Shown here: positions 29,337-36,352 of the stretch, in pieces
Layout of the letters: the number at the start of each line of letters is the position of its first letter
How positions within the stretch are numbered: the first letter of the stretch is position 1
Origin: Cytophagales bacterium
Lineage (GTDB): Bacteria; Bacteroidota; Bacteroidia; Cytophagales; UBA9547
Length of the DNA: 64,000 bases
Assembly (NCBI GenBank): GCA_046152935.1
Contig: JBJXGB010000103.1
Location: forward strand, 3,983 to 67,982
Reading direction: 5' to 3'
Made by a program: the position numbers and the translations under genes
Notes under the pieces: generated by a model
What the model saw: only the letters and a program-made list of their open reading frames with translations
The model's database searches: none
What the model was told of the DNA's origin: nothing

Positions 29337-29503
29337 AAGAAGTGATTTGAGTTTTTATTTATTTTCAGTTAAAAATTTTGAATCTGTACGAAATGCAAAT
29401 ATAAGTGGGCAATTACATTATGCTAATATACAACTCTAATTTTTCGTCTATTTATACTATTCTTATAAAAAATTGAATTTTAACATAGTATAAAATTTGA
29501 AAT

Positions 29504-30607
29504 CTAACTCAATTTCAATCTGTAATTAGTACTTCTACCACCAGCTTCATCCTTTAGAAGCATACCTTTGTTTATTAAATCCTGTATGTCGCGCAAGGCG
29601 GTATCAGGTGAGCATTTGTTCATTTTAGCCCATTTGGAAGAATTTAAACTGCCAAAAAGATCATCAAAAAGCTTATTTAGCATTAACCTTTGCCTTTCAT
29701 TAAGCGGAGCTTGGGCATGTTTTTGCCAAAATTGAGCCTTTGATAGTACGTTTTTGAGCGTTTCATCACTTGCTACAAGCGCACTCAAAAGACAATCTAA
29801 GTACCACTGGAGCCATTCCGTTATATCCAGACTTCCTCTTGAAGAGAGCTCAAGTATTTCATAATAGCCTTTTCGCTGTATGCGTATTTGGGCAGACAAA
29901 CTGTAAAATCTTTGACTAGTACCATCAGCCCTAGCGAGCTGCATGTCTGCCAAAGCACGTGCTATACGCCCATTTCCATCGTCAAAAGGGTGTATGGTCA
30001 CAAACCAAAAATGAGCCAAAGCAGATTTCAAAACTGGATCTAATGTATCGGCATTATTGAACCAATCGAGAAAAGTTTCCATTTCATATTCGAGCTTTGA
30101 GGCATCAGGTGCTTGAAAATGCACACGTTCACGGCCCATTGCCCCTGAAACTACCTGCATTGGACCAGTATTATCATCTCGCCATTTGCCCACCACTATA
30201 TCGTACATTCCACTTTTGCCCATAGGAAATAATGCCAAATGCCAACCAAATAGCCGCTCTTTGGTCAGTGGCTCATTGAAATTTTGTGTGGCATCAAGCA
30301 TCATTCCTACCACTCCCTCCACATTGCGATCGGAAGGTATAAGCCCAGCTACTTCTATACCCAAACGCCTTGCTACAGATGACCGCACTTGATCTGGATT
30401 TATAAAAACACCTTCTATTTCTGACGATTTTAACACATCAAGTGTTGCAGTATCTAATATCGCTTCTTCTTGCATTGTAAAGCCTAAAGAAGACATATAG
30501 CCTAATAACTTGCCTTGCTTGTTCCTTACTAGACCAAGCGCATGGCTCAAACTTTCTAAATCGTATCGAAAATGTGGCCAATATTTAGATTCGTATACAT
30601 ATGTCAT
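29504..30607 (-). CDS. Fic family protein (AMPylase-type motif) with an N-terminal inhibitory-helix motif and a C-terminal winged-helix-like domain
   Basis: Canonical Fic motif HPFDDGNGRIARAL. The upstream SSEIEG fits the (S/T)xxxE(G/N) auto-inhibition motif. The N-terminal region is DUF4172-like. Confidence 0.9.
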   Translation of the reverse strand: MTYVYESKYWPHFRYDLESLSHALGLVRNKQGKLLGYMSSLGFTMQEEAILDTATLDVLKSSEIEGVFINPDQVRSSVARRLGIEVAGLIPSDRNVEGVVGMMLDATQNFNEPLTKERLFGWHLALFPMGKSGMYDIVVGKWRDDNTGPMQVVSGAMGRERVHFQAPDASKLEYEMETFLDWFNNADTLDPVLKSALAHFWFVTIHPFDDGNGRIARALADMQLARADGTSQRFYSLSAQIRIQRKGYYEILELSSRGSLDITEWLQWYLDCLLSALVASDETLKNVLSKAQFWQKHAQAPLNERQRLMLNKLFDDLFGSLNSSKWAKMNKCSPDTALRDIQDLINKGMLLKDEAGGRSTNYRLKLS

Positions 30608-30608
30608 T

Positions 30609-30801
30609 TATTCTCCTCACATCATGCAACAAATATACCACCTATTCTCCGCAAATAAAATTATTCTCCGCACATTTTACGGCAAATAACACCACTAATC
30701 ACCGGAAAACGCCACAAAAATGGAATAATTGTAGTTCATGCGGAGAATAGCGTTGCTATTCTCCGCATAAATAGCGGTAATTAAAGACATTATTCTCCGC
30801 A
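30609..30801. promoter_or_regulatory. cluster of six 11-mer sites TATTCTCCGCA (candidate operator/iteron array) in the fic / M1-peptidase divergent region
   Basis: Perfect copies lie at 30643-30653, 30662-30672, 30757-30767 and 30791-30801 (direct) and 30739-30749 (inverted). A one-mismatch copy lies at 30609-30619, next to the fic start codon. Confidence 0.6.
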
Positions 30802-30965
30802 AGACTTTTTTATATTTTGAGTAATGAATAAAAAAACAGCCTTGAGATTTAAGCCTATTGCGTAGAAATTGACAATGATGAAACACTAAAAAAATCTCTT
30901 TTAATTATTGACAATCTACCTCTGTATTTTTTGATATATTTAGGCTTCAGAACAACATACTTAAT

Positions 30966-33900
30966 ATGACAAGGTCAAAATCACTACTATTTTCAATTGC
31001 TATTGCCAATTTTTCAATAGCATTTGTTTTTAGTGCATTCTCTCAAAATGAAAAATTTCTACTTCCCTATCAATCACCCGAAAACCAATTTTATTGGAAA
31101 AATAATAAACTTTTGTCGAAAGATTATTGGCAACAAGACGTGGCTTACAGCATAAAAGCAAGCATTGACGATAAAAACGACATTATCAATGCCGATTTTT
31201 ACCAATTAAAATACACCAACAATTCGCCAGCAGAGCTTACAGAAATATATTTCCATTTGTATGACAATGCCTATCAAAAAGACTCGTACTACCACGAGCT
31301 TTGGAAAGCCAATAAAGTAGATCCAAAATTTGGGAAATACGAAGCAGAAAAAAAGGGAATAGAAACACAAAACTGGCAAGTAAATGGGCAAAATGTAAAA
31401 ACAGAATTAGACAATACCATCATCAAAATATCGCTCAATACACCATTAAAAACTGGTGAAAGCCTTGAAATTACCTGTCAATTTAAAACCTACTGGGACA
31501 AAGGTGCAATGCGAAGACGCAGCAAATCTTTCAAAAACAAAGATAATACCAAGCATTTTGATGGCGTGCATTGGTACCCAGTAGTGTGTGTGTATGATAA
31601 ATACTTCACTTGGCATACCGATCAACACCTCGACAAAGAATATTATGCTAATTTTGGCAGTTTTGATGTGGAACTTACTTTTCCGCAAGAATATATTGTG
31701 GAGGCTTCCGGTGTATTGAAAAATGAAAATGAAGTATTGCCAGAGGATTTGAAAGCAAAACTCAATCTTAAAAATTTTAAAGACAAACCATTTGATTCTC
31801 AGGCATCTACCATCGTCCCGAAAGAAGAAGGCAAAACAAAAACTTGGAAGTTTTATGGGCTGAACATTCACAATTTCGCTTTTACAGCCGACCCTTTGTA
31901 TCGTTTTGAATCGATAGATTTGAATGGAATAAAAATAATAGCCCTTGTTCAAGAACCTCATGCGGCAAAATGGCAACAATCGGCCAGTTTTACAGTACAA
32001 ATAATGGAAACGTACATCAAAGACTTTGGCACTTATATATGGCCAAAAATAATAGTGGCCGATGCCGATGATGGCATGGAATACCCAATGTTGACATTAG
32101 ATGGAGGCACATATCCACAGCACCAATATTTGCTGGCACACGAAGTTGGACACATGTGGTTTTATGGCATGTTGGGCTCAAACGAAACTTACAGGGCTAG
32201 TCTAGATGAAGGGTTCACCCAATTTCTCACCATTTGGAGCATGGACAAAATTACTGGCAAAAAGAAATTCAGACCTGCCCCATTCAAATTTTTGCAATCG
32301 TTTTCTGATAGCTCGGTAAATCGTTTCGATCGCCTTTACACTAGCTATTTGGCAGATGTTTGGACGGGCTATGACGAACCATTAAATACACATTCCAACG
32401 GATTCAACAGTGGAATACGGCAATCTGGTGGCTACAGGGCTGTTTATAACAAAACTGGCGTAATGCTTTACAATTTAAAATACGTGTTGGGCGACACCTT
32501 ATTTCAGAAAGCCATGCAACATTATGTAAAAAAATGGACGGGCGCTCACCCCTACCCACAAGATTTTAGAGAGGCTATTACAGAATATGTAAAAACAGAT
32601 CTTACTTGGTTTTTTGACCAATGGCTGGAAACTACCAAAAATATCGATTATAAAATTGAAAGAGTAATAAAGATAAAATCGAATGATACCACGAAAATCG
32701 ACAGTTTGAAAACCAATATCTATGGAATAAAATTTGCACGTCTTGGCAGAATGCAAATGCCGATCGATTTTACCGTTTCAAACAAACAAGGCAAAAAATT
32801 TGACTATCATATTCCAAACACTTGGTTTATAAAAGCAACCAACGCTCAAATATTACCAAAATGGTATGGCTGGGATTTGCTCAACAGCACCTACCAAACC
32901 ACGGTCACCATTACTGGAAGTCTAAAGGAGGTAGAAATTGATCCAGCGCATATTTTGGCCGATAAAGACCTCACTAACAACTCATTAAACAATTTTTACG
33001 ATATTAAACTTAAACACAATTTGCCGAACCCACCATCGTGGGAAAAACTAAAACTGTATTTAAGACCTGCTTTGTGGTGGAACCGATTTGACGGCTTGCA
33101 AATAGGTGGCGGTAGTAGCCGAGAATATTTCAACCAAAATTATTGGCAAGAAATGACGATCTGGTACAATTCTAGATTGGCGCAAGACAATATTTTTGGA
33201 GATGATTCGAAGAAAAACAGAAATGTTTCTATTCAATTTAGCGACAAATACAACCTTTCAAAACATTGGCGACAACTTTACTATGTGTCTGATTTTCAAT
33301 TCAATGCGGGCCTAGTAAAGCACCAAGTTGGCTTTGAAAAAACATTTAGATACCAAGATTTACGCAATCCTCGCTATACAAAAATATTTATTCAACACGG
33401 GCTTATGTATCGCGATTTGCCTAGCGACAAATTATACCTTATTTATCCCGATTATTGGAGTGTTGGCAAATTCAACACGTATATTCAAGCCGGGATCACG
33501 CGAAATTATCCCATCAACACAAAAGGCAATGGTGAATGGACGCTAGAAGCCAGATTACCAGGCATTTACAACGATTTCAATTATTCGTATTTACAATACA
33601 CAAGCATTGTAAACTACAATATAGCGAAATTTGAGTGGAAAATAAGGGCTTTCGGGCGATTGGGTTTTGGCAACACTCCTTTGGAATCTTCTTTATATTT
33701 GGCAGGTGCATCGCCAGAGCAGCTATTTGCCAATAAACTTACCCGTGCTGCTGGTTTTGTACCCAGCGATTGGGAAGGTTACGACAATAACACGAATCAT
33801 TTTCAAATGGGCGGAGGCCTGAATATCAGGGGCTTTGCTGGCTATGTAGCTCCCACAGACGACAATGGTACAATCACTCTTAATTATGTAGGAAAATCTG

Positions 33901-34220
33901 GGGCATCGCTCTCGTTCGAGCTCGATTTTGATAAATTTATACCCCTGAAACCAAATCGCTACACCAAATATTTTCATTTCGATACCTACTTATTTCACGA
34001 TATGGGTATTTTGGCATTTCAAAACTCCTCAAACGACCAACGGTTTGGAAATTTAAGAATGTCGAGTGGTGTAGGTACTGCCTTGACAGTAAAAATCGAC
34101 CAATTGAATATAAAACCATTTACCATTCGCTTCGATGTGCCATTATTTCTCAATGCTAGCCCAGCGGGAACTGGAAATACGGATTTTAGGTATGTAGTCG
34201 GGATAAATAGAAGCTTCTAA
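30966..34220 (+). CDS. M1-family zinc metallopeptidase fused to a C-terminal Omp85-like beta-barrel region
   Basis: Signal peptide, then the gluzincin signature HEVGHMWFYG-x-LDEGF (HExxH-x18-E). The C-terminal roughly 390 aa are beta-rich, contain GGGLNIRGF and FHDMG (Omp85 L6 RGF/Y-like and FxDxG-like motifs) and end in ..INRSF. Confidence 0.8.
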   Translation: MTRSKSLLFSIAIANFSIAFVFSAFSQNEKFLLPYQSPENQFYWKNNKLLSKDYWQQDVAYSIKASIDDKNDIINADFYQLKYTNNSPAELTEIYFHLYDNAYQKDSYYHELWKANKVDPKFGKYEAEKKGIETQNWQVNGQNVKTELDNTIIKISLNTPLKTGESLEITCQFKTYWDKGAMRRRSKSFKNKDNTKHFDGVHWYPVVCVYDKYFTWHTDQHLDKEYYANFGSFDVELTFPQEYIVEASGVLKNENEVLPEDLKAKLNLKNFKDKPFDSQASTIVPKEEGKTKTWKFYGLNIHNFAFTADPLYRFESIDLNGIKIIALVQEPHAAKWQQSASFTVQIMETYIKDFGTYIWPKIIVADADDGMEYPMLTLDGGTYPQHQYLLAHEVGHMWFYGMLGSNETYRASLDEGFTQFLTIWSMDKITGKKKFRPAPFKFLQSFSDSSVNRFDRLYTSYLADVWTGYDEPLNTHSNGFNSGIRQSGGYRAVYNKTGVMLYNLKYVLGDTLFQKAMQHYVKKWTGAHPYPQDFREAITEYVKTDLTWFFDQWLETTKNIDYKIERVIKIKSNDTTKIDSLKTNIYGIKFARLGRMQMPIDFTVSNKQGKKFDYHIPNTWFIKATNAQILPKWYGWDLLNSTYQTTVTITGSLKEVEIDPAHILADKDLTNNSLNNFYDIKLKHNLPNPPSWEKLKLYLRPALWWNRFDGLQIGGGSSREYFNQNYWQEMTIWYNSRLAQDNIFGDDSKKNRNVSIQFSDKYNLSKHWRQLYYVSDFQFNAGLVKHQVGFEKTFRYQDLRNPRYTKIFIQHGLMYRDLPSDKLYLIYPDYWSVGKFNTYIQAGITRNYPINTKGNGEWTLEARLPGIYNDFNYSYLQYTSIVNYNIAKFEWKIRAFGRLGFGNTPLESSLYLAGASPEQLFANKLTRAAGFVPSDWEGYDNNTNHFQMGGGLNIRGFAGYVAPTDDNGTITLNYVGKSGASLSFELDFDKFIPLKPNRYTKYFHFDTYLFHDMGILAFQNSSNDQRFGNLRMSSGVGTALTVKIDQLNIKPFTIRFDVPLFLNASPAGTGNTDFRYVVGINRSF

Positions 34221-34231
34221 TTTCATTCTGA

Positions 34232-36352
<2,121 letters not shown>

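Follow-up and report, generated by a model that had tools for sequence, protein, structure and literature searches.

A ten-slot box array upstream of a winged-helix fic gene is a probable operator for the Fic protein itself

[quoted passage not shown] We give this reading a probability of roughly three in four. The boxes form a regular array, are conserved upstream of homologous fic genes, are restricted to fic promoters, and covary with the recognition helix of the Fic protein that they accompany. DNA binding by the wHTH of the window Fic is predicted from this covariation, and we infer the sign of regulation and the stoichiometry. Autoregulation had been proposed in the original prediction, and the wHTH model, the conserved offsets, the non-dispersed boxes, the helix-box covariation, and the precedents of CccR and SoFic all point in its favor.

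The gene and the relevant parts of its product are as follows.

29504 to 30607, minus strand: fic, 367 aa, with Pfam DUF4172 and Fic domains; a class II DUF4172-Fic-winged-helix protein
29516 to 29698, minus strand: C-terminal helix and strand segment, by DSSP of the AF2 model (H303-313, H322-329, H333-345, E349-351, E361-363; the model numbering is the window numbering minus 1)
29570 to 29608, minus strand: recognition helix PDTALRDIQDLIN, residues 334-346, in which only residues 334, 338, and 342 (i, i+4, i+8) are variable

Pfam matched the product to PF13776 (DUF4172, E 6e-28) and PF02661 (Fic, E 9e-18). The Fic core motif HPFDDGNGRIAR at residues 206-217 satisfies HxFx(D/E)GNGRxxR, and the inhibitory motif SSEIEG at residues 61-66 aligns with TSAIEG at residues 62-67 of CbFic2. 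By these motifs, the window Fic is a predicted class II Fic (Fido) AMP-transferase. CbFic2 was the best match in a phmmer search of the PDB (8CIL, E 1.2e-92, residues 3-364) and the top fold match when the AF2 model (pLDDT 91.3) was compared with Foldseek (8CIL, TM 0.88-0.92). Helices at 304-314, 323-330, and 334-346 and a two-stranded wing make up a C-terminal wHTH in the model, as had been suspected from the sequence of this region. In the phmmer alignment, window residue 338 is paired with Y341 of CbFic2, which is reported to lie in helix 3 of the CbFic2 wHTH (PMC10628234). The PADLOC SoFic profile matched the window Fic with an E of 1.3e-41 and covered residues 20-362, and no NCBIfam family scored above its cutoff (SoFic equivalog, 52 bits vs a cutoff of 550). 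No ORF of at least 20 aa that could encode an AS1-like antitoxin or partner was found on the fic strand in 29337-29503.

The 64-kb window was searched for TATTCTCCGCA with up to one mismatch. Six copies, five exact and one with one mismatch, lie in 30609-30801. They start, with strands given for TATTCTCCGCA, at 30609 (+, one mismatch, TATTCTCCTCA), 30643 (+), 30662 (+), 30739 (-), 30757 (+), and 30791 (+). The sole match outside the array, at 35626 inside ligA, has one mismatch and is at chance level; dinucleotide shuffles held 1.0 match on average and 4 at most, and none of 100 reached 7. The original prediction had described six copies, gaps of 34/19 and 18/34 bp, an inverted pair TGCGGAGAATA-n7-TATTCTCCGCA at 30739-30767, and a first copy directly upstream of fic, and all of these were confirmed, the first copy ending 1 nt before the ATG at 30607-30605. 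Its claim that such clustering is not expected by chance also held, with about one match expected per 64-kb window. It had further described two mirror-spaced triplets. The gaps are correct, but the mirroring is only a surface feature; the array is really built from the unit -> n7 <- n5 ->, repeated to give ten slots. Four further degenerate copies with two or three mismatches (30625-30635, 30678-30688, 30696-30706, and 30773-30783) occupy slots of the family layout and complete a regular 18/16-bp lattice, in which each 34-bp gap is 18+16 with a decayed box in the middle. The array and its surroundings are listed below.

30609 to 30619, minus strand: box S6, TGAGGAGAATA, one mismatch; predicted to fall within the 5' UTR, 1 nt before the ATG; contains GGAG
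30625 to 30635, plus strand: box S5, inverted and degenerate, TGCAACAAATA on the plus strand, three mismatches; overlaps the predicted promoter -7 element
30630 to 30637, minus strand: TATATTTG, which fits TAnnTTTG perfectly and was read by eye as the predicted -7 element of the fic core promoter
30643 to 30653, minus strand: box S4, TGCGGAGAATA, exact; occupies the predicted promoter spacer, directly upstream of the -7 element
30662 to 30672, minus strand: box S3, TGCGGAGAATA, exact
30678 to 30688, plus strand: box S2, inverted and degenerate, TACGGCAAATA, two mismatches
30696 to 30706, minus strand: box S1, degenerate, TCCGGTGATTA, two mismatches, including the A/T variant that is common at position 9
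30739 to 30749, plus strand: distal box E4, inverted, exact; forms a palindrome with E3
30757 to 30767, minus strand: distal box E3, exact
30773 to 30783, plus strand: distal box E2, inverted and degenerate, AGCGGTAATTA, three mismatches
30791 to 30801, minus strand: distal box E1, exact; the outermost copy, with 165 bp between it and the M1-peptidase ATG
30966 to 34220, plus strand: M1 peptidase gene, divergent neighbor of fic

Three of the six canonical boxes (S1-S6) are degenerate in the window, including S5 over the predicted promoter. The distal boxes form a third module beyond the two of the family, and a comparable extra unit is present in a relative that is 75% identical (locus L181). 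The strongest palindrome, E3/E4, is situated 132-170 bp upstream of the fic ATG and is an inverted repeat with 17-nt arms that are 94% complementary. An ORF over the distal boxes (30695-30886, minus strand) was treated as spurious; an ATG directly follows E1, but the frame is made of the boxes themselves.

The upstream regions of fic homologues were examined, as had been recommended when the array was first described, and the boxes were found at fixed offsets from the ATG in many phyla; their absence upstream of fic orthologues, which had been named as a refuting outcome, was thus not what was seen. Across 179 homologous loci, the family box is TGCGGnGAATA on the fic strand, and the layout is [-> n7 <- n5 ->] twice, ending at the ATG, with start-to-start distances of 18 and 16 bp. 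Box offsets are near -100>, -82<, -66>, -45>, -27<, and -11>; S4-S6 are best conserved, with the S5 slot at -24 to -29 and the S6 slot at -10 to -16. Carriers of the boxes encode Fic homologues that are 59-66% identical and belong to Bacteroidota, Omnitrophota, Alpha-, Beta-, and Gammaproteobacteria, Acidobacteriota, Planctomycetota, and others. In a de novo search, 123 of 178 upstream regions had some 11-mer present at least four times, compared with 0 of 178 shuffles. Spacing is quantised, with 18 bp from -> to <- 163 times and 16 bp from <- to -> 95 times. Some homologous loci have few or no boxes (for example, L018 and L057). The automatic box caller mis-registers some loci (for example, L035, L036, L043, and L058), and the statistics exclude loci with fewer than three box matches or poor register. 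A literature search with the box sequences as strings returned unrelated primer matches only.

Wide occurrence as a dispersed repeat had been named as an outcome that would speak against the array being regulatory. Box density was 12.1/kb upstream of fic and 0.037/kb in 646 kb of flanks from 150 loci, a difference of about 330-fold. A dispersed repeat of the REP or MITE type was rejected on this density and on the one chance-level extra match in the 64-kb window. A broader version of this idea takes the boxes for recombination sites, transposition ends, or replication iterons belonging to a fic-carrying mobile element, or else for a chance or dispersed repeat. The gene is indeed patchy, with about 60% identity across phyla and differing neighborhoods, and it occurs on 17 IMG/VR contigs. 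However, no recombinase, transposase, or replication gene is adjacent to fic in the window, and the boxes are confined to a single side of the gene, each at a set distance from its ATG. They are not dispersed, and chance was excluded by the shuffles. We find this explanation hardly credible. The composition profile showed no island signature around fic.

The recognition helix is invariant in the family except at residues 334, 338, and 342, and both 334 and 338 track box sequence. The variable left half of the box follows residue 334, the first residue of the helix. Q, P, or A at this residue accompanies TGCGGA; S, T, or N accompanies TGCGG[C/T]; H accompanies TGCGTn; and K or R (with I338 and N342) accompanies TGC[A/G]AC. 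The R-A-Y/F helix of the CbFic2 clade accompanies TGAAGC. Among 367 columns, column 334 has the top mutual information with box positions 3-6 (1.19 bits, z 12.4; next-best z 8.1) and column 338 ranks 4th-5th, a covariation that is partly confounded by phylogeny; the K/I/N class, for example, may be a single clade. Loci with the same residue at 334 share a box about twice as often as loci that differ (0.56-0.59 vs 0.28-0.34) at all levels of divergence, as measured over residues 1-300. The effect of 334 equals or exceeds that of eight control columns in five of six identity bins, while in the 0.50-0.55 bin two controls exceed it. Classes first seen in genome loci recurred in later metagenome and viral loci. 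The code predicts that P334K/L338I/Q342N would shift the preference of the window Fic from TGCGGAGAATA towards TGCAACGAATA.

The covariation also bears on the possibility, raised in the original prediction, that the boxes are the target of a host transcription factor encoded elsewhere, which would control fic together with the divergent M1-peptidase gene. The array does sit in a divergent intergenic region, and on the plus strand E1 is followed by TTTTTTATATTTTG, a weak -7-like element. Against an unlinked factor, the boxes covary with Fic's own recognition helix, accompany fic across phyla and unrelated gene neighborhoods, and fall to 0.037/kb in the 646 kb of flanks. The M1-peptidase ATG is also at least 165 bp away from the array, and another repeat, ATTGACAAT, is present in two copies nearer the M1 gene. 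Control of the M1-peptidase gene was not supported because synteny around fic was not found in the two closest relatives; the neighboring genes differ between loci. Joint control by such a factor is very unlikely.

The placement of the boxes relative to the promoter suggests what Fic binding would do. Among 65 distinct proximal palindromes, 44 have a -35-like TTG 5-7 nt upstream of S4, and in 92% the spacer ends in A, which gives a -10-like TA+TATT overlapping S5. The proximal palindrome is positioned between the conserved TTG and the putative -10/-7 element. Where other phyla have TA+TATT, the window has TATATTTG, which perfectly matches TAnnTTTG, the sequence we take to be the Bacteroidota -7 consensus as in Bacteroides promoters. 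A sigma-70 promoter scan gave a count not above that of shuffles, with a scanner that does not model Bacteroidota promoters. The proximal module would be interleaved with the core promoter, with S4 in the spacer, S5 over the -10 or the Bacteroidota -7 element, and S6 in a short 5' UTR, so that a Fic dimer would occlude RNA polymerase. Fic, which probably dimerises on the palindrome in response to DNA, would in this way repress its own transcription, and a potentially toxic AMP-transferase would be kept low and self-limited. The upstream modules may add cooperative occupancy.

Another possible explanation for the inverted copies is that they act as RNA, forming hairpins in the fic leader in which S5:S6 sequesters a GGAG ribosome-binding site or S1:S2 alternates with S2:S3. 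The -> <- -> order permits alternative pairing, S6 has GGAG beside the ATG, and shared changes are slightly commoner in <- n5 -> (9 of 176 changed positions) than in -> n7 <- (2 of 244). These counts nevertheless mean that compensatory changes are near-absent, and they are confined to the degenerate positions 6, 9, and 11. A permissive Rfam 15 scan of 30400-31100 gave only sub-threshold chance matches to eukaryotic snoRNA and miRNA models, and we rejected a cis-regulatory RNA on the lack of an Rfam match and the rarity of compensatory changes. The box sequence itself, beyond its pairing, is conserved across phyla. The conserved TTG/-10 pair would put the transcription start at the end of S5, and therefore S1-S4 would not be transcribed. 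In Bacteroidota, S5 has drifted to the promoter-like TATTTACCGCA, breaking its pairing with both S4 and S6. Bacteroidota also rarely use Shine-Dalgarno pairing, and a terminator scan found no terminator-like site. Overall, an RNA role is extremely unlikely.

Repression by Fic is the reading that we prefer, but simple promoter occlusion does not account for E3/E4 at 132-170 bp upstream, and the model does not account for three-box modules given a symmetric dimer. In an unlikely alternative, the boxes are bound by Fic with a main role beyond simple repression. They could switch the protein from a monomeric AMPylase to a DNA-bound dimeric deAMPylase, as proposed for CbFic2, hold a reservoir of Fic, or activate transcription from distal modules. 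The activity and dimerisation of CbFic2 depend on DNA (PMC10628234). Arrays of 6-10 boxes are far beyond what occlusion needs, and modules lie away from the core promoter in the window and at loci L181, L012, L032, and L055, and even downstream of the stop codon at L004 and L177. On the other hand, the best-conserved boxes, S4-S6, are interleaved with the predicted -35, -10, and transcription start in a classic repressor layout, and CccR, the one relative that has been tested, acts as a repressor, with its regulatory activity separable from its toxic one (PMC9755527). In one form of this alternative, which we hold with similarly low confidence, the array would be an allosteric docking platform. 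The DNA-bound Fic dimer would be inactive or deAMPylating, and stripping Fic from the boxes or outrunning them would release a monomeric AMPylase and cause growth arrest (abortive infection). If so, the triggers could be phage-induced DNA degradation, a surge of transcription or replication, or competing DNA, and the code between residue 334 and the box would insulate co-resident Fic paralogues.

The winged-helix Fic domain organisation occurs in more than 1,500 species by one preprint's count, and a cognate DNA site is so far known for only one such protein, CccR. The array and its homologues supply a candidate operator, TGCGGnGAATA-n7-TATTCnCCGCA, with a CbFic2-clade variant, as well as the likely placement of the operator in the promoter. 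A candidate recognition code also emerges, linking helix residue 334 to box positions 4-6. It becomes testable whether these proteins are self-limiting transcription factors and whether cognate DNA or any DNA sets the AMPylase/deAMPylase state. In genome annotation, the boxes show where the genes of this fic clade truly start and where their promoter lies.

Several known systems resemble the proposed arrangement. In Phd-Doc of phage P1, the expression of a Fido-fold toxin is limited by its own module, which binds palindromic operators over the promoter. The DNA binder of Phd-Doc is a separate antitoxin, whereas in the window the toxin polypeptide itself carries both the inhibitory helix and the DNA-binding domain. 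Autoregulation of the Phd-Doc type was cited as a rationale in the CccR paper (PMC9755527). CccR of Yersinia pseudotuberculosis, a class II Fic with a C-terminal HTH (PDB 7XUX), is a Fic toxin that acts as its own transcriptional repressor (PMC9755527). In its own promoter, its HTH binds as a dimer to inverted-repeat boxes close to the -35/-10, and mutation of the boxes causes derepression (PMC9755527). The domain order and logic of CccR match those inferred for the window Fic, and both have inverted-repeat boxes in their own promoter region (in the window, the palindrome at 30739-30767 and eight other slots). However, the two proteins are distant (phmmer E 1e-6, Foldseek TM 0.49). The CccR operator, AGATAATCAT-N26-ATGATAATCT, is a single pair 26 bp apart, while the window has 11-bp TGCGGnGAATA boxes spaced n7/n5 in two to three modules. 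CccR is also a T6SS effector, and nothing suggests secretion of the window Fic. The window array therefore appears analogous to CccR in mechanism but not a member of the same operator family.

SoFic of Shewanella oneidensis (SO_4266, PDB 3EQX) is likewise a class II Fic with a C-terminal wHTH and a multi-copy box array upstream. Its dimer shows specific binding to the 100 bp immediately upstream of its own ATG, and its monomer does not (bioRxiv 10.64898/2026.07.09.737422). Autoregulation was suggested in that preprint, which defined no motif (bioRxiv 10.64898/2026.07.09.737422). We found five ATGTCGAT boxes in the SoFic upstream region, among them a palindrome and a copy close to the ATG, and three of the five fall inside the 100-bp fragment. 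SoFic belongs to another subfamily; only its Fic core aligns with the window Fic (E 4e-10), and its box differs. The SoFic type is also an anti-phage defence in PADLOC and DefenseFinder (EcSofic, PMC12249575), a single-gene Fic system like the window fic. A solitary, patchily distributed window fic fits with a defence-like lifestyle. EcSofic (9vjc) aligns with the window Fic only at the Fic core (E 1.3e-9) and has a downstream antitoxin, AS1, whereas no such ORF of at least 20 aa follows the window fic. No promoter operator for EcSofic was found described in the literature.

CbFic2 of Coxiella burnetii (CBU_0822, PDB 8CIL) is the closest solved relative, with a full-length DUF4172-Fic-wHTH likeness and about 42% identity. 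It was investigated as a host-directed effector, with histone H3 as its AMPylation target (PMC10628234). Its wHTH mediates DNA binding, and the protein forms dimers on DNA of about 20 bp (PMC10628234). Random DNA was bound with nanomolar affinity, part of the binding was wHTH-independent, and all of the activity and dimerisation assays used random DNA; the study explicitly left open the recognition of a specific sequence (PMC10628234). We found no report in the literature of a cognate sequence or autoregulation for CbFic2. Its own promoter contains GAAGCGATTA-n6-TAATCGCTTC overlapping a TATAAT, together with a third copy, in the layout -> n6 <- n6 ->, compared with n7/n5 in the window. Its recognition helix reads R-T-Y-H and the left half of its box is GAAGC, compared with TGCGG in the window family. 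From this sequence pattern, we predict that GAAGCGATTA-n6-TAATCGCTTC is the cognate operator of CbFic2.

The boxes lie between fic and a divergent M1-peptidase gene, and gene and Pfam annotation agree with the original prediction on both neighbors:

fic, 29504-30607, minus strand: 367-aa protein Fic, Pfam DUF4172 and Fic
M1 peptidase, 30966-34220, plus strand

Further out in the window are housekeeping genes (H+-pyrophosphatase, M17 aminopeptidase, and LigA). A motif search of the window found five exact copies and one single-mismatch copy of TATTCTCCGCA at 30609-30801. The exact copies start at 30643, 30662, 30757, and 30791 on the plus strand and at 30739 in inverted orientation; the mismatched copy starts at 30609. 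On the fic strand, the box reads TGCGGAGAATA. Outside the array, the 64 kb held one more match with at most one mismatch, at 35626 within ligA. Shuffled sequences had a mean of 1.0 match and 0 of 100 reached seven, bearing out the claim that the copies exceed chance. The ligA copy (TATTCACCGCA, 35626-35636) is single, has one mismatch, and lies in a coding region, consistent with a chance expectation of about one such match per window. The near-palindrome ATTGACAAT occurs twice (30868-30876 and 30907-30915, 39 bp apart; repeat family D4) and is nearer than the fic boxes to the start of the M1-peptidase gene. This pair is a better candidate than the fic boxes for the promoter or operator of the M1-peptidase gene.

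Fic homologues with 59-66% identity were retrieved from 80 genomes across many phyla (Bacteroidota, Omnitrophota, Alpha-, Beta-, and Gammaproteobacteria, Acidobacteriota, Planctomycetota, Armatimonadota, and others). Later, 17 viral-contig loci, 80 metagenome loci, and the Coxiella locus were added. When the regions upstream of fic orthologues were compared, as had been proposed, nearly all of the 80-genome homologues shared the box at constant positions relative to the start codon: in forward orientation at about -100, -66, -45, and -11, and inverted at about -82 and -27. At least four copies of some 11-mer were found de novo in the 140 nt upstream at 123 of 178 loci, compared to 0 of 178 shuffled controls. 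Across loci, the start-to-start spacings were quantised:

forward to inverted: 18 bp (n=163)
inverted to forward: 16 bp (n=95)
forward to forward: 34 bp, i.e. 18+16 with a decayed middle box (n=25)
forward to forward between modules: 19-22 bp (n=51)

Therefore, the unit is forward-n7-inverted-n5-forward (n, spacer length), normally present twice per locus. Mapping the family-wide slots (S1-S6) and extra distal slots (E1-E4) onto the window gave an array of ten.

Box slots upstream of fic in the window (position from the ATG; orientation on the fic strand; mismatches to TGCGGnGAATA)
S6: -12, forward, 1
S5: -28, inverted, 3
S4: -46, forward, 0
S3: -65, forward, 0
S2: -81, inverted, 2
S1: -99, forward, 2
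E4: -142, inverted, 0
E3: -160, forward, 0
E2: -176, inverted, 3
E1: -194, forward, 0

The mirror-like 34-bp gaps first described are thus real as spacings, but each is made up of 18+16 bp around a decayed middle box. E1-E4 form an additional distal module, and four other loci (L181, L012, L032, and L055) likewise have extra distal modules. A repeat finder picked out a 48-nt repeat family (D1) in the window, and therefore the modules are old tandem duplicates. A 63-aa ORF (30695-30886, minus strand) overlaps the distal boxes, with an ATG directly after E1 that parallels the fic ATG after S6. This ORF is probably not a gene, its frame being made of the boxes themselves. The distal module resembles a duplicated promoter-operator-start region that has decayed. 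At two loci, a complete module (forward-n7-inverted-n4-forward) also lies just past the fic stop codon: at L004 (4120-4163), where it faces a convergent gene and so has no obvious promoter to control, and at L177, some 1116-1145 nt past the start of fic. These could be auxiliary looping operators or remnants.

The array is tied to fic. When boxes were called against the consensus of each locus, their density was 12.1/kb in the 250 nt upstream of fic compared to 0.037/kb in 646 kb of surrounding sequence, which speaks against the dispersed repeat once considered possible. The array is retained in the two nearest relatives (85% and 75% identity), whose neighborhoods are unrelated; therefore, it moves with fic and not with the M1 peptidase. 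This Fic clade (L001-L097) keeps ~60-65% protein identity across very distant phyla and unrelated neighborhoods, and 17 IMG/VR viral contigs, ten of them nearly identical, bear its fic. These observations point to a one-gene cassette, with promoter and operator, that is frequently transferred horizontally.

Fic is a class II enzyme (catalytic motif HPFDDGNGRIAR, inhibitory motif SSEIEG), and among solved structures, Coxiella CbFic2 is its nearest relative (8CIL; E 1.2e-92 full length, TM 0.88-0.92). The predicted winged-helix-like C-terminal region is seen in the AF2 model (pLDDT 91.3), with helices at 304-314, 323-330, and 334-346 and a wing formed by strands 350-352 and 362-364 (window numbering). 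In homologues, the recognition helix has the pattern CS-x-DTA-x-RDI-x-DL and varies only at 334, 338, and 342 (i, i+4, i+8), the other residues being invariant. The right half of the box is invariant (GAATA or GATTA), while the variable left half follows residue 334:

Q/P/A at 334: TGCGGA
S/T/N at 334: TGCGG[C/T]
H at 334: TGCGTn
K/R at 334 with I338 and N342: TGC[A/G]AC
R-A-Y/F (CbFic2 clade): TGAAGC
P-A-Q-A: TGAGGT

Mutual information between the 367 protein columns and box positions 3-6 was calculated for 133 dereplicated loci. Column 334 ranked first (1.19 bits, permutation z 12.4; next 8.1) and column 338 fourth to fifth. To control for divergence, locus pairs were grouped into six bins by their identity over residues 1-300. 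In each bin at or above 0.55, the box was shared about twice as often when the two proteins agreed at residue 334 (0.56-0.59 vs 0.28-0.34). This effect equalled or exceeded that of all eight control columns in five of the six bins; two controls exceeded it at 0.50-0.55. The helix-box classes from genome loci were seen again in the later-fetched loci. This pattern is characteristic of a protein and its own binding site evolving together, and it argues for Fic itself as the binder. Five loci (L014, L015, L043, L045, and L061) mix box types in one array, e.g. TGCGACGAATA with TGCGGAGAATA, or TGCGAAGATAA, and have intermediate helix triplets (T-L-Q, Q-I-Q). They may represent a specificity change caught midway or a relaxed-specificity reading of the boxes.

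A promoter appears to be interleaved with the proximal boxes. In 44 of 65 distinct proximal palindromes, S4 is preceded by TTG at a distance of 5-7 nt. The last base of the 7-nt spacer is A in 92%, and the last two are TA in 54% (n=65). Therefore, a -10-like hexamer (TA+TATT) overlaps the start of S5, ~17 bp past the TTG hexamer. In Bacteroidota loci, S5 is typically TATTTACCGCA. The Bacteroidota -7 promoter consensus is TAnnTTTG, and TATATTTG (30637-30630), at the corresponding place in the window, is a perfect match. In the Coxiella promoter, TATAAT overlaps the inverted box in the same manner. S4 would occupy the promoter spacer, S5 would overlap the -10/-7 element, transcription would begin near the S5 end, and S6 would fall in the ~20-nt leader. 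This inferred layout is the classic one for repression by occlusion.

With a probability of about 0.75, fic is negatively autoregulated by its own winged helix through this modular operator array; conservation, the fic-linked array, and helix-box covariation all support the autoregulation originally proposed. It is unlikely that Fic binds the boxes chiefly as an allosteric or tethering platform. A regulator encoded elsewhere, suggested earlier as controlling both divergent genes, is quite improbable, since the array follows fic across unrelated neighborhoods and the boxes covary with Fic's own recognition helix. An RNA element is very improbable: there was no Rfam match or terminator-like site, and the conserved thing is the box sequence itself, beyond mere pairing. 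Among positions where at least one arm deviates from the locus consensus, compensation was found at only 2 of 244 in forward-n7-inverted pairs and at 9 of 176 in inverted-n5-forward pairs, every one already degenerate. An S5:S6 leader hairpin might still have a minor role. Mobile-element ends or iterons are the least probable reading, as the boxes flank the gene on a single side, at constant distances from the ATG, and no recombinase is nearby in the window.

Related Fic proteins offer precedents. In Yersinia pseudotuberculosis, the class II Fic protein CccR, which has an HTH at its C-terminus, acts through AGATAATCAT-N26-ATGATAATCT to repress its own promoter (PMC9755527). The SoFic dimer specifically binds the first 100 bp upstream of its ATG; fragment F1 is bound best, and no motif was defined (bioRxiv 10.64898/2026.07.09.737422). 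When the SoFic promoter sequence (Table S2 of that preprint) was searched for repeats, ATGTCGAT was found five times (-137 inverted, -107 forward, -68 forward, -57 inverted, and -28 forward). Three of the five copies lie in F1; shuffles had at most three copies of any 8-mer. A long palindrome in fragment F3, CACGTGTATAGATA...TATCTATACACGTG, is distinct from these copies and is probably the site of a different regulator. The window's Fic matches the SoFic defence profile of PADLOC (E 1.3e-41) and scores below the NCBIfam SoFic equivalog cutoff; no AS1-like gene was found downstream of fic. CbFic2 uses its wHTH to bind DNA, forms dimers on about 20 bp, and is switched between AMPylase and deAMPylase states by DNA binding; its assays used random DNA only, and the authors did not settle whether it is sequence-specific (PMC10628234). 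Its promoter (L098 1448-1489, ATG at 1501) contains a perfect palindrome, GAAGCGATTA-n6-TAATCGCTTC, overlapping TATAAT, and a third copy, GAAGCAATTG, closer to the ATG. This palindrome is a candidate cognate site of CbFic2. The window's box was not found as an operator in a literature text search. The mechanism of a self-regulating Fic-HTH is of a known kind; no description appears to exist so far of the CbFic2-like clade operator, of its modular arrangement, or of the helix-box code. For a structurally characterised family of enzymes, experimentalists thereby gain the candidate cognate DNA that had been missing.
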